Assembly: GCF_002854065.1 (NCBI RefSeq)
Contig: NZ_CP024147.1
Source: Escherichia coli
GTDB taxonomy: Bacteria; Pseudomonadota; Gammaproteobacteria; Enterobacterales; Enterobacteriaceae
Direction: 5' to 3' (one strand)
DNA length: 64,000 nt
Positions 35,901 through 41,900 of the stretch are shown here, one piece after another. The first letter of the stretch is position 1, and the number at the start of each line of letters is the position of its first letter. A program made the position numbers.

Positions 35901-38900
35901 TGCGGCGTCTGGTGTCTCTTCCGAAAGTGTGGTCACCGCATCGAAACCAAGGAAAGAGAAGCAGACGATCGTCGCCCCGGTAATAATCGGAATCAGATGC
36001 GCGTTCTCGCTGATAAACGGCTGAAGTGACCAGACGGTGCCAACGCCTTCTCCTTTATGCAGTCCCTGAACCACCAGGAAGATAAACACCACCATGATGG
36101 AGATTTGCACCAGTACAAACAGGGTATTGAAGTTAGCGACCAGGTTGACGCTCTTCAGATTCGCGGCGGTTAAAATGGCGACGAAGGTTACCACCCACAC
36201 CCACGGCGGCACTTCCGGGAAGAGGGCGGAGAGATAGATTTTCGCCAACAAAACGTTGATCATCGGCAAAAAGAGATAATCCAGCAGTGATGACCAGCCG
36301 ACCATAAATCCGACGTGCGGGTTAATCGACTTTTGCGCGTAGGTATAGGCCGAACCGGCCTCCGGAAACTGGCGAACCAGTTTGCCGTAGCTGATAGCGG
36401 TAAACAGCACGCCCGCCAGCGCCAGCAAATAGGACGCCGGAACGTGACCGTCGCTAATGCCGGAGACAATACCAAAAGTATCAAATACGGTCATCGGCGT
36501 GAGATAGGCCAGACCCATCATCACCACCTGCCACAATTTCAGTGATTTTCGCAGACGGGTTTTGCCGGGTTGCGCGGCAATATTCAGTGGTGAATTAATA
36601 GCCATAATTGCTGCCTCCCCTGCGTAATAAGGTTTGCGGTCGTGTCGACCTGAAATCAAACCTGTTTAGCAAGGGAAGCAAAGGGGGCGGAGTCCAGTCA
36701 GTCGCAGGAGGGGCGCATACGCAGCCTCCCTCGCCATGCGGGGATTTAATCATCGGCATCATCTCATTTCCTCGTCACAGTCTTAATCGTTAACGGAAGC
36801 CCGTTGCCGCCTGCGCTCCATAACGCGACATCCGGGAAATGTCTGGATTACCAGCAAATGTCAGGCCTGGCTCCGCTCAGGCCGATGAAACAACCCCGCA
36901 AGGGGTATTACGCGTTTTTCAACATCCACTCAATTTCTGTTTCTGTGATGAGGCGCTCAAACTGCAACAGCTCATCATTTTTACAGGCGTGATACACATG
37001 GCAAAACCGTTCGCCTAAATAGCGGCGCAGGTGATCATTCTCGATAAACTCACCCAGGGCATCGCTCTGGCGAATCGGGAAGGGTAAGCCATCCTGTTCC
37101 AGCCCGTTGCCTTCGACTTCTTCCTGCAACGGCAGCTCGTTATCAAGACCGTGCAAAATACCGGCAAAAATCGCTGCCATCACCAGATATGGGTTGGCAT
37201 CGGCACCCGCCACGCGATATTCCACGCGGTGATTATGGCGATCGCCGCATGGAATACGCAGGGCGACGGTACGGTTATTATGGCCCCACGACGCCTGCGT
37301 CGGTACATACATACCTGGCTGGAAGCGGCGATACGAGTTCACGTTTGGTGCCAGCAACGCCATTGATGACGGCATCAGGTCAATCATCCCGGCGAGCATC
37401 TTTTTCAGCAGCGGCGAATCTTCGCCTTCTGTGTCAGAAAGCACGTTCTCGCCACGATTATTTTGCATACTGATATGGATATGCATTCCGCTGCCCGCGT
37501 GCTCTTCATACGGCTTCGCCATAAAAGTGGCGTGCATCTTATGCTTTTCTGCCATCAGACGCACCAGGCGTTTTAGTGCCAGCGCATCATCGCAGGCTTC
37601 CAGCACGTTATCAGTATGGTAAAGGTTGATTTCAAACTGACCCGGCGAGGCCTCAGCGACCGCGCCATCTGCCGGAATCAGCTGTAACTGCGCCAGTTCA
37701 TCAATATCATTGAGCACGTCGGCGAAGTGGTTGAGGTTATCAACGGAGTAAACCTGGCTTTGTGTATTGCGGTCATCAGTGCCGGGCGCGCAGGGCGGTT
37801 GCAGATACCCTTCAGCGTCGCGCTGGCGATCCAGTAAATAGAACTCCAGCTCTACCGCTACGACCGGGAACAATCCGCGCTGGCGCAGCTGCTGCCACAG
37901 GCGGTTAAGAACGTTCCGCGGCTCAACGTCAAAGGGAGCGCCATCTTCATCGACCATGGTCAGGAGCATCTGACCGATAAACTCTGGATCGGCGGCAGAA
38001 GGGGTTAAGGAACCGAGAACAGGAACACAGGTACGATCCGGCTCGCCCATTTCCTGACCCAGACCTGCTTCTTCTACTACGTTGCCCAGAATATCCATTG
38101 CAAATACCGAGGCCGGGAAATAACACCCTTTCTCGAGCTTCTTCAGGCTTGAAACAGGAATACGTTTTCCACGGAAGCAACCATTCAAATCGGTAAGTAA
38201 AACATCAACATATTGCGTATTCGGGTAGCGCTCCAGGTAGCGTTTCACTTCCTGCGTAAAGGCGCTACCCCGCCTCTCTTCTGACTGCTGAACAAAGTTC
38301 TCTACTTCGGTAATGACTCCAACTTATTGATAGTGTTTTATGTTCAGATAATGCCCGATGACTTTGTCATGCAGCTCCACCGATTTTGAGAACGACAGCG
38401 ACTTCCGTCCCAGCCGTGCCAGGTGCTGCCTCAGATTCAGGTTATGCCGCTCAATTCGCTGCGTATATCGCTTGCTGATTACGTGCAGCTTTCCCTTCAG
38501 GCGGGATTCATACAGCGGCCAGCCATCCGTCATCCATATCACCACGTCAAAGGGTGACAGCAGGCTCATAAGACGCCCCAGCGTCGCCATAGTGCGTTCA
38601 CCGAATACGTGCGCAACAACCGTCTTCCGGAGCCTGTCATACGCGTAAAACAGCCAGCGCTGGCGCGATTTAGCCCCGACGTATCCCCACTGTTCGTCCA
38701 TTTCCGCGCAGACGATGACGTCACTGCCCGGCTGTATGCGCGAGGTTACCGACTGCGGCCTGAGTTTTTTAAATGGCGGAAAATCGTGTTGAGGCCAACG
38801 CCCATAATGCGGGCGGTTGCCCGGCATCCAACGCCATTCATGGCCATATCAATGATTTTCTGGTGCGTACCGGGTTGAGAAGCGGTGTAAGTGAACTGCA

Positions 38901-41900
38901 GTTGCCATGTTTTACGGCAGTGAGAGCAGAGATAGCGCTGATGTCCGGCAGTGCTTTTGCCGTTACGCACCACCCCGTCAGTAGCTGAACAGGAGGGACA
39001 GCTGATAGAAACAGAAGCCACTGGAGCACCTCAAAAACACCATCATACACTAAATCAGTAAGTTGGCAGCATCACCCTCTACTTCAACGATATTGGTTTC
39101 CATGATTCTTCGCCTTTGGTTTGTTTTCCGCTCGTTATCAAAGCGTAAAATATAATGACCACCATTCGAATCTGTATGCAAACTAAATGTTTGTCAAATG
39201 TTAAATTGAGTTTGCAAAAATGAAAACTCACTGCTAGATTGAAAAAATATTGAACATAAAGGTCATTTAAACCGCAGTAATGGCGATAATTTAGTCCACT
39301 TTGTGAGATTGAGCATGGAAAATATAATGAACAATCCGGTTATCGGTGTCGTAATGTGCAGGAACAGGCTTAAGGGTCATGCGACCCAGACTCTGCAAGA
39401 AAAGTACCTGAATGCCATCATCCATGCAGGCGGCTTGCCAATTGCGCTGCCACATGCGCTGGCGGAACCGTCGTTACTTGAACAACTTTTGCCGAAACTC
39501 GATGGCATTTACCTTCCTGGTAGTCCCAGCAATGTGCAGCCGCACCTATATGGTGAAAACGGCGATGAGCCTGACGCCGATCCCGGGCGTGATCTTCTGA
39601 GCATGGCGTTAATTAATGCCGCACTCGAAAGGCGCATCCCCATTTTCGCCATCTGCCGGGGTTTACAGGAACTGGTGGTGGCAACCGGTGGTTCGTTGCA
39701 TCGCAAGCTGTGCGAACAGCCTGAATTGCTGGAACATCGGGAAGATCCCGAACTGCCGGTGGAACAGCAATATGCACCGTCGCATGAAGTTCAGGTTGAA
39801 GAGGGGGGATTGCTGTCTGCGTTGTTACCTGAATGTAGCAACTTTTGGGTAAACTCTCTGCATGGACAAGGGGCAAAGGTCGTTAGCCCACGGTTGCGTG
39901 TTGAAGCTCGCTCGCCGGATGGCTTAGTTGAGGCGGTTAGCGTCATCAATCATCCTTTTGCGCTGGGCGTACAGTGGCACCCGGAATGGAACAGTAGCGA
40001 GTACGCGCTTTCGCGTATATTGTTCGAGGGCTTTATCACCGCTTGTCAGCACCATATCGCTGAAAAACAGCGACTCTGACCACTACAGTTTAAGGAAATG
40101 CAAATATGAGTGATGAGGGACTGGCGCCAGGAAAACGCTTGTCGGAAATCCGCCAGCAGCAGGGGCTTTCACAACGTCGTGCCGCCGAACTCTCCGGGCT
40201 GACTCACAGTGCTATCAGTACGATAGAACAAGATAAAGTCAGCCCTGCCATCAGTACGCTGCAAAAGCTGCTGAAGGTGTATGGTCTGTCACTCTCGGAA
40301 TTCTTTTCCGAGCCGGAAAAACCTGATGAGCCGCAGGTCGTCATTAATCAGGACGATTTAATTGAGATGGGCAATCAGGGTGTGTCAATGAAGCTGGTTC
40401 ATAACGGTAAGCCGAATCGCACGCTGGCGATGATCTTTGAAACGTACCAGCCGGGCACAACCACTGGGGAAAGAATTAAGCATCAGGGTGAGGAAATAGG
40501 CACTGTACTGGAAGGTGAAATTGTTCTGACGATTAATGGTCAGGATTACCACCTCGTCGCGGGGCAAAGTTATGCCATTAATACCGGCATCCCGCACAGT
40601 TTCAGTAATACGTCGGCAGGTATTTGCCGAATTATCAGCGCCCATACGCCCACCACGTTTTAATCTTTTTGTTCTGTAAGCCGGGTAAGCGCAATGCGCC
40701 CGGCAATCCATAAAGAATGTCGCCAGAAATAAACGGGCATACGGCCCGGGGATCTCTGCGCCCTGACGTTCACAAACTGCATATATCTGATAGACGTGAA
40801 ACAGGAGTCATAATGAATTTTCATCATCTGGCTTACTGGCAGGATAAAGCGTTAAGTCTCGCCATTGAAACCCGCTTATTTATTAACGGTGAATATACTG
40901 CTGCGGCGGAAAATGAAACCTTCGAAACATCCGATCCGGTTACCCAGGCACCGCTGGCGAAAATTGCCCGCGGCAAGAGCGTCGATATCGACCGTGCGGT
41001 GAGCGCAGCACGCGGCGTATTTGAACGCGGCGACTGGTCACTCTCTTCTCCGGCTAAACGTAAAGCGGTACTGAATAAACTCGCCGATTTAATGGAAGCC
41101 AACGCCGAAGAGCTGGCACTGCTGGAAACTCTCGACACCGGCAAACCGATTCGTCACAGTCTGCGTGATGATATTCCCGGCGCGGCGCGCGCCATTCGCT
41201 GGTACGCCGAAGCGATCGACAAAGTGTATGGCGAAGTGGCGACCACCAGTAGCCATGAGCTGGCGATGATCGTGCGTGAACCGGTCGGCGTAATTGCCGC
41301 CATCGTGCCGTGGAACTTCCCGCTGCTGCTGACTTGCTGGAAACTCGGCCCGGCGCTGGCGGCGGGAAACAGCGTGATTCTAAAACCGTCTGAAAAATCA
41401 CCGCTCAGTGCGATTCGTCTCGCCGGGCTGGCGAAAGAAGCAGGTCTGCCGGATGGCGTACTGAACGTAGTAACGGGTTTTGGTCATGAAGCGGGGCAGG
41501 CGCTGTCGCGTCATAACGATATCGATGCCATCGCCTTTACCGGTTCAACCCGTACCGGGAAACAGCTGCTGAAAGATGCGGGCGACAGCAACATGAAACG
41601 CGTCTGGCTGGAAGCGGGCGGCAAAAGCGCCAACATCGTTTTCGCTGACTGCCCGGATTTGCAACAGGCGGCAAGCGCCACCGCAGCAGGCATCTTCTAC
41701 AACCAGGGTCAGGTGTGCATCGCCGGAACGCGCCTGTTGCTGGAAGAGAGCATAGCTGATGAATTCTTAGCCCTGTTAAAACAGCAGGCGCAAAACTGGC
41801 AGCCGGGCCATCCACTTGATCCCGCAACCACCATGGGCACCTTAATCGACTGCGCCCACGCCGACTCGGTCCATAGCTTTATTCGGGAAGGCGAAAGCAA

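Follow-up and report, generated by a model that had tools for sequence, protein, structure and literature searches.

The stretch of DNA that was analysed, a 64-kb window of an Escherichia coli genome, carries the putrescine utilisation genes in the order sapA-ymjA-puuP-ymjE-puuA / puuD-puuR-puuC-puuB-puuE-pspF, which matches that of annotated genomes. The puuAP and puuDRCBE operons have been described in a review as repressed by PuuR, PuuA being the enzyme that opens the pathway, and the literature places ymjE and puuP in the puuAP operon. A second pathway of putrescine breakdown begins with the PatA aminotransferase, and this route lies outside the window. The features of the puuA region, where an IS1 element interrupts the gene, are collected in Table 1.

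Table 1. Features of the interrupted puuA locus and its surroundings (positions in the window)
Feature	Position	Strand	Remark
puuP, putrescine/H+ symporter, 461 aa	35220..36605	-	sequence intact; downstream of the insertion
ymjE, 54 aa	36595..36759	-	intact; follows puuA within the puuAP transcription unit
puuA codons 7-472 and stop	36908..38308	-	severed from own promoter, ribosome-binding site and start codon
Target-site duplication, copy 2, CTCTACTTC	38300..38308	.	puuA codons 7-9
Complete IS1, 768 bp	38309..39076	-	same orientation as puuA
IS1 right inverted repeat	38309..38331	-	
insB reading frame	38324..38827	-	TAA stop at 38324-38326, in frame with the downstream puuA remainder
insA, 91 aa, GTG start	38746..39021	-	intact
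A6C slippery motif	38764..38770	-	-1 frameshift gives the 232-aa InsAB' transposase, open frame
Chimeric 17-codon leader frame, METNIVEVEGDAANLLI	39050..39103	-	puuA ATG to TAG inside the IS1 left end
IS1 left inverted repeat	39054..39076	-	overlapped by promoter-like site 39069-39042
puuA codons 1-9	39077..39103	-	still joined to puuA promoter and ribosome-binding site
Target-site duplication, copy 1, 9 bp	39077-39085		within the segment of puuA codons 1-9
puuA-puuD intergenic control region	39104..39314	.	intact; identical to strain CUWW06
PuuR-operator-like 15-mers (predicted)	39147-39161, 39242-39256, 39319-39333		last overlaps puuD start
Divergent puuD-puuR-puuC-puuB-puuE operon	39315..44885	+	all frames open

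The first nine codons of puuA (ATG GAA ACC AAT ATC GTT GAA GTA GAG, or METNIVEVE), both read directly and recomputed, stand on the promoter side of the element, and the frame resumes on its far side as EVENFVQQSEERRGS..., running to the stop codon at 36908-36910. The 9-bp sequence CTCTACTTC (plus strand) is found as a perfect direct repeat on both sides of IS1, and the duplicated target, GAAGTAGAG in the sense of the gene, corresponds to puuA codons 7-9. When IS1 and one copy of the repeat were removed in silico, the 472-aa frame of PuuA was restored. An earlier note on this DNA had placed a complete 768-bp IS1 directly after these nine codons, in the orientation of puuA and flanked by a duplication of codons 7-9, and had concluded that the promoter and start codon were split from the rest of the gene. 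The sequence of the nine codons is as claimed there, and the insertion point was borne out by direct reading and by recomputation; the repeat is perfect on both sides and present as a single copy at the empty site of strain CUWW06 (see below), and the remaining 463 codons now lack a promoter and a ribosome-binding site as well as a start ATG of their own. The length of the element, its inverted repeats, reading frames, target duplication, profile match and IS1B identity all agree with a complete IS1, and insA and the insB frame lie, like puuA, on the minus strand. The same note had described the divergent puuDRCBE side as intact, in agreement with the open frames and with an intergenic region identical to that of CUWW06.

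The IS1-free sequence of 36908..39103, aligned to PuuA, gave a 472-aa protein identical at 470/472 positions to WP_001296746.1 of a laboratory strain, presumably K-12, with an identical N-terminus. At the DNA level, puuA is identical to the RefSeq-annotated puuA of CUWW06. The NCBIfam model NF045547 (GGputSyn) scored only 198.6 bits against PuuA, with a cut-off of 650, and models of the glutamine synthetase type likewise remained below their cut-offs; since no NCBIfam model reaches its cut-off, the name puuA is based on identity to PuuA proteins that have been annotated and characterised. The 472-aa PuuA neighbours seen in the genomic contexts carry the Pfam domain Gln-synt_C, and the best matches in a structure search, which turned up no solved PuuA, were glutamine synthetases (E about 1e-40).

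The element belongs to a well-known type. Its terminal inverted repeats are imperfect, with 18/23 terminal bases matching, the A6C motif TTTAAAAAAC is found at IS position 307, and the promoter-like site at its left end lies where the insA promoter is expected (a prediction). With the NCBIfam model transpos_IS1, the InsB part scored 143.8 bits (cut-off 100) and the InsA part 90 bits. The copy in puuA is 100% identical to a second IS1 of the window, 34 kb away at 3106-3873, and to two copies in CUWW06 annotated as "IS1-like element IS1B family transposase"; in complete E. coli genomes, where more than 10,000 records were matched, the identity was 97.5-99.5% among the matches listed. In its length, its imperfect inverted repeats of ~23 bp, insA and insB, the A6C frameshift and the 9-bp target duplication the element is no different from known IS1B-type copies of E. 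coli, and only the site of insertion, puuA codons 7-9, is new.

A near-identical strain is informative with respect to the origin of this allele. The window is ~99.98% identical to CUWW06, a wastewater E. coli; the differences amount to 13 substitutions and one gap, plus two IS insertions, namely this IS1 and an IS2. The two sequences are otherwise colinear, and the segment 39077-43677 is identical in both. A Shigella origin, considered in view of the two IS1 copies within 64 kb, was rejected for want of evidence, given this near-identity to a wastewater E. coli. After removal of IS1 and one copy of the repeat, the reconstructed locus matched the empty site of CUWW06 over 6,224 bp with 0 mismatches, and thus the insertion is not a chance pattern; the same locus differed from E. 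coli strain 100416 by 3 mismatches, and both of these strains carry an intact 472-aa puuA. The earlier note had suggested that related genomes be surveyed for the same insertion. Neither a query of flank-IS1-flank nor one of the 80-bp junction detected the puuA-IS1 junction in 5,426 complete E. coli genomes, with the sole match covering at least 80% being 89% identical and located at an unrelated IS1 site. The exact 44-bp junction had 0 matches in the GTDB species-representative genomes and metagenome contigs scanned, and the exact PuuD protein was found in 10 distinct contexts, every one of them with an intact 472-aa puuA. A literature search returned no report of IS1 in puuA or of puuA pseudogenes. 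Because the empty site exists in the near-identical CUWW06 and the exact junction is absent from the genomes and contigs searched, the insertion is, as judged from these comparisons, recent and private to this strain.

A junction seen in no other genome or metagenome searched could also be an assembly artefact or an event of laboratory passage rather than an allele of a natural population. IS1 copies are a classic problem of repeat resolution, and the element transposes readily in culture, seven IS1 insertions having been published for aged colonies. A misjoin, however, would not yield a perfect 9-bp duplication together with an exact closure of the empty site, which is the signature of real transposition; this argument counts against a misjoin only. 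Taken together, an origin in assembly or in the laboratory appears extremely improbable, and the event is an ordinary, textbook IS1 gene knock-out with nothing unusual about it. A transposition-competent IS1 would have made a simple and recent insertion in a strain near-identical to CUWW06, duplicating its 9-bp target.

Transcription and translation from the puuA promoter now enter IS1 after nine codons, and translation ends at a 17-residue peptide, the TAG of this chimeric leader frame lying 28 nt before the GTG of insA. In the remainder of puuA, the earlier note had expected a product starting at the next in-frame Met and lacking about 27 residues. This proved incorrect in detail: the GTG of codon 27 (Val27, 38248-38246) is the earliest in-frame codon past IS1 that can serve as a start, which would give 446 aa and the loss of 26 residues, and the first in-frame ATG is that of Met77. 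A translational coupling of insB to puuA, the insB stop codon being in the puuA frame, was considered and rejected, as no ATG, GTG or TTG lies between that stop and codon 27 and as insB itself needs a rare frameshift.

The GTG at 38248 is the basis for reading the allele as a hypomorph instead of a null, in which read-through from the puuA or insA promoter and a restart at codon 27 would produce a partly active 446-aa PuuA, with puuP still expressed. IS1 and puuA have the same orientation, and upstream transcription entering IS1 has been documented in the literature. Moreover, alignments to solved glutamine synthetase chains start at PuuA residues 21-32, and with the family profiles included the conserved core begins no earlier than about residue 21-36; the greater part of the missing segment thus falls outside this core. 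Residues 22-26, though, would also be lost, and in the alignment these match the beginning of the N-terminal segment in the B. subtilis-type glutamine synthetase. The Shine-Dalgarno-like AGGA upstream of the GTG has a spacing of only 1 nt, which is too close, the IS1-puuA junction shows no outward promoter and IS1 is classically polar, and no called protein on record corresponds to the 446-aa product, whether it begins with V or with M. Residual PuuA activity of this kind therefore looks quite improbable. The most likely effect of the insertion would be the loss of gamma-glutamylputrescine synthetase, of which no or almost no enzyme would be made; the glutamylation (Puu) route would then stall at its initial step, with entry left only through the PatA aminotransferase route.

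Polar IS1 insertion mutations are known classically, e.g., from the gal and lac operons, where IS1 likewise sits close to the 5' end of the operon's first gene and splits the promoter from the coding sequence. Work by Hubner, Iida and Arber from 1987, among others, is said to have found IS1 to be polar, with an internal Rho-dependent terminator. In the present case, in contrast to those mutations, the polarity on ymjE-puuP is inferred: IS1 being classically polar, the puuA promoter would probably supply the two genes with less transcription. The earlier note was right in giving IS1 and puuA the same orientation, but the read-through into puuP that it considered is the less likely outcome. At the threshold of the promoter scan, the junction of IS1 and puuA shows neither an outward nor a hybrid promoter, and given the polarity of IS1, reduced puuP expression from the puuA promoter is more likely. 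Independent expression of puuP might come from a promoter-like sequence within the 3' part of puuA (37004-36977, minus strand). The explanation that very probably accounts for the whole is, then, a recent simple IS1 insertion that inactivates puuA and reduces ymjE-puuP transcription.

The insertion also sets IS1 in sense 27 nt past the puuA start, with the predicted PuuR operators and the promoter intact. Because of this arrangement, derepression by putrescine would transcribe insA/insAB' of this copy. That such a capture of the promoter makes transposition, or trans-repression by InsA, responsive to putrescine and PuuR is a tentative idea and seems rather doubtful.

Other natural lesions of the puu cluster are known in E. 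coli, and all of them differ from this IS1 insertion in being deletions or frameshifts: puuA had no match in 1,053 of the 5,426 complete genomes, strain PK8217 has a puuA'-puuD-puuR-puuC-puuB' deletion, strain 100416 a puuE frameshift and strain L011 (GCA_946056085.1) a split puuP. With puuA lacking a match in about 19% of complete genomes and with the lesions in these three strains, it may be asked whether the inactivation of puuA is adaptive, e.g., through raised intracellular putrescine, rather than neutral decay, putrescine levels being reported in the literature to influence motility and pili. This is a single private allele, however, with no recurrence or parallelism at the puuA site; only 2 of the 4,373 puuA-carrying genomes cover less than 80% of the gene, and a puuA deletion alone gave no motility phenotype in W3110 (literature). 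Selection for the loss is accordingly very unlikely. In essentially all of these 4,373 genomes puuA is single-copy (4,377 places).

The recent insertion shares the probable loss of the first enzyme, with the PatA pathway kept, with the engineered puuA deletions of K-12 and W3110 (Kurihara et al.; Schneider and Reitzer 2012), to the extent that the papers citing them describe these. Unlike the deletions, the IS1 allele is natural and potentially reversible, since precise excision across the 9-bp repeats could lead to reversion at a low frequency; it may also lower puuP expression, and the transcription from the puuA promoter feeds into IS1.

The importance of the finding lies mainly in annotation and in the prediction of strain phenotype, and no open question of IS1 or of polyamine metabolism is touched. 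The IS1 in puuA is a useful lineage marker, since only this and one other IS insertion distinguish the window from CUWW06, and the two insertions point to ongoing IS1/IS2 activity in the lineage. The puuA of this strain is best annotated as an IS1-interrupted pseudogene, and the strain is predicted to be without the gamma-glutamylation route of putrescine catabolism, perhaps importing less putrescine through PuuP.

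The puuA gene, the first of the putrescine utilisation (Puu) pathway, is read on the minus strand and is interrupted by a complete IS1. Direct reading and recomputed coordinates agree exactly that its first nine codons (ATG GAA ACC AAT ATC GTT GAA GTA GAG, i.e., METNIVEVE) are split off, as the earlier note had stated, and are followed by an element that begins with GGTGATGCTGCCAACTTACTGAT and ends with ATCAATAAGTTGGAGTCATTACC, after which the gene resumes with GAA GTA GAG AAC TTT GTT (EVENFVQQSEERRGS...) and runs up to its TAA stop. On both sides of the element stands the 9-bp direct repeat CTCTACTTC (plus strand), which corresponds, as had been claimed, to codons 7–9. 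The terminal inverted repeats are imperfect (18 of 23 bases match), and a −1 frameshift at an A6C slippery motif gives an open 232-aa InsAB′. The InsB part scored 143.8 bits and the InsA part 90 bits with the NCBIfam model transpos_IS1 (cut-off 100), and the element has 100% identity both to the window's other IS1 and to two copies annotated “IS1-like element IS1B family transposase” in the near-identical strain CUWW06. In length, inverted repeats, frames, target-site duplication (TSD) and identity to IS1B-family copies, it shows all the hallmarks of IS1 that sequence can test, and since the insA and insB frames are both on the minus strand, its orientation is that of puuA. The observation of the earlier note is thus confirmed, and its interpretation supported with minor corrections (see below).

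Coordinates of the interrupted gene, the inserted elements and neighbouring features in the window
Feature	Position	Strand	Detail
puuA codons 1–9	39103-39077	−	
IS1 in puuA	39076-38309	−	768 bp
insA	38746-39021	−	intact, 91 aa
insB frame	38324-38827	−	open
puuA remainder	38308-36908	−	
9-bp repeat copies	38300-38308; 39077-39085		
PuuR operator matches	39147-39333		three best in window
Promoter-like site, puuA 3′ end	37004-36977	−	
Weak hairpin	36906-36893		right after puuA stop
Other IS1	3106-3873	+	between cysB and ymiA
IS2	20101-21431	+	complete, 1,331 bp
Efflux island	21684-29197	+	between fabI and sapF
pspE, then directly ycjX	~47900-48203		

The other IS1, common to the window and CUWW06, has an 8–9 bp repeat (GAATTATT) at its ends and lies 34 kb from the puuA copy in inverted orientation, so that the acnA...puuA′ segment would be inverted if they recombined. 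In CUWW06, ~1 kb past the window's right end (2243500-2244566), a further identical IS1 stands beside a truncated abgT remnant, which points to an IS1-associated deletion in that strain just beyond the window.

When the IS1 and one repeat copy are removed, the puuA frame measures 1,419 bp and encodes 472 aa; aligned, as the earlier note had proposed, to a K-12-type PuuA (WP_001296746.1, from a 4.64-Mb laboratory strain that is probably K-12), it is identical at 470 of 472 residues (differences A299T and E412D), the N-terminus included. No NCBIfam model reaches its own cut-off for the E. coli PuuA protein (GGputSyn 198.6, cut-off 650), so that the gene is named puuA for its context and for its identity to the E. 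coli gene that has been annotated and characterised. The empty site, reconstructed from window positions 34000-41000 without the insertion (6,224 bp), aligns to CUWW06 without any mismatch and to strain 100416 with 3 mismatches; both strains have an intact RefSeq puuA (WP_001307767.1, glutamate-putrescine ligase) in the order sapA-ymjA-puuP-ymjE-puuA | puuD-puuR-puuC-puuB-puuE. That the insertion is an artefact of assembly is very unlikely, given that the TSD is perfect and that the sequence without the insertion closes precisely on the empty site.

The window is colinear with CUWW06 over its 64 kb, with 13 substitutions and one gap, and has exactly two additional insertions, the puuA IS1 and the IS2. 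The puuA::IS1 allele was found in 0 of 5,426 complete E. coli genomes using flank-IS1-flank and 80-bp junction queries, the survey of other genomes that had been suggested; the exact 44-bp junction was found in 0 species-representative genomes and 0 metagenome contigs, and no recorded protein matches the truncated PuuA product. An identical PuuD occurs in ten distinct public contexts, and in 10/10 it is adjoined by a 472-aa puuA. Together, the colinearity, the surveys and these contexts show that the insertion is recent and private to the source strain, and it may have arisen during laboratory passage. Since IS1 in puuA is also unreported in the literature searched, the allele counts as new, but as an event it is of a thoroughly familiar sort, a textbook case of IS1 inactivating a dispensable catabolic gene that is well characterised.

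That loss of puuA was selected is possible but unsupported: the gene is without a megablast match in 1,053 of the 5,426 genomes (~19%), but in all except 2 of the 4,373 genomes with puuA, at least 80% of the gene is covered. Of the matches, six are plasmid-borne. In strain PK8217 (NZ_CP080121.1, 3501-4602 in comparison locus coordinates), a natural deletion has fused the 3′ 579 bp of puuA directly to the 3′ part of puuB, with puuD, puuR and puuC gone, an independent loss of the pathway. Further decay of the cluster is seen in strain 100416, where puuE is annotated as frameshifted, and in GCA_946056085.1 (2690-4068 in comparison locus coordinates), where puuP is called as two pieces of 236 aa and 203 aa.

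The IS2, the second strain-private insertion in the window, separates fabI from a TetR-family regulator gene and has an RND efflux operon downstream of it; ORFs of 136 and 301 aa in the element exceed the NCBIfam cut-offs for IS2 TnpA and TnpB, it is flanked by an apparent 5-bp duplication (AATAT), and it has no counterpart in CUWW06 or 100416. It might affect the regulator or the efflux operon. The island itself encodes a TetR regulator, RND adaptor, RND pump, outer-membrane factor and MFS transporter, and just 2,036 of the 5,426 complete genomes cover at least 80% of the region containing it (19900-36900). Internal stops are present in the adaptor gene of CUWW06 and the outer-membrane factor gene of 100416, both frames being open in the window. 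The ycjM-ycjW/ompG block, which presumably separates pspE from ycjX in K-12, is absent in the window's lineage.

The promoter region of puuA is untouched and identical to that of CUWW06, and the three best window matches to the PuuR operator consensus cluster at 39147-39333. Translation from the puuA ATG now covers 17 codons (METNIVEVEGDAANLLI*) before it meets a TAG within the left end of IS1; the GTG of insA follows 28 nt later. On the downstream side of IS1, the insB stop codon lies in the puuA frame, with no ATG, GTG or TTG start between it and GTG codon 27; this codon is the first start-capable one and the first in-frame ATG past IS1 is Met77, which corrects the earlier note, where the next in-frame Met had been expected to give a product lacking about 27 residues. 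A 446-aa PuuA started at GTG27 could be a hypomorph, in that alignments of glutamine synthetase (GS) profiles and of solved GS chains do not begin before PuuA residues 21–36, but this is unlikely given the poor initiation context (the sole Shine-Dalgarno-like motif is an AGGA 1 nt upstream) and the lack of a promoter; the consensus scan placed a promoter-like site in the left end of IS1, but no such site at the right end points outward into puuA. We thus favor inactivation, with PuuA predicted to be absent or at trace level in the source strain.

IS1 is classically polar and has an internal Rho-dependent terminator. Because of this polarity, and because puuAP is one operon under PuuR repression (published review), the puuA promoter probably drives less ymjE-puuP transcription than before. 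Owing to the promoter-like site in the puuA 3′ end and the weak hairpin, puuP might still be expressed independently to some extent. The insertion also fuses a sense-strand IS1 to a putrescine/PuuR-regulated promoter and a translated leader. Recent work found that upstream transcription entering IS1 raises insAB′ transcription and transposition, and an older study cited in that work (Machida et al. 1983) reported that transcriptional read-through represses IS1 cointegration; on these published effects, one may speculate that this copy might respond to putrescine. As PuuA catalyses the opening step of the gamma-glutamylation pathway (published review), its loss would block this route of putrescine catabolism, and the second E. 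coli route, which starts with PatA, would become the sole entry to putrescine breakdown.
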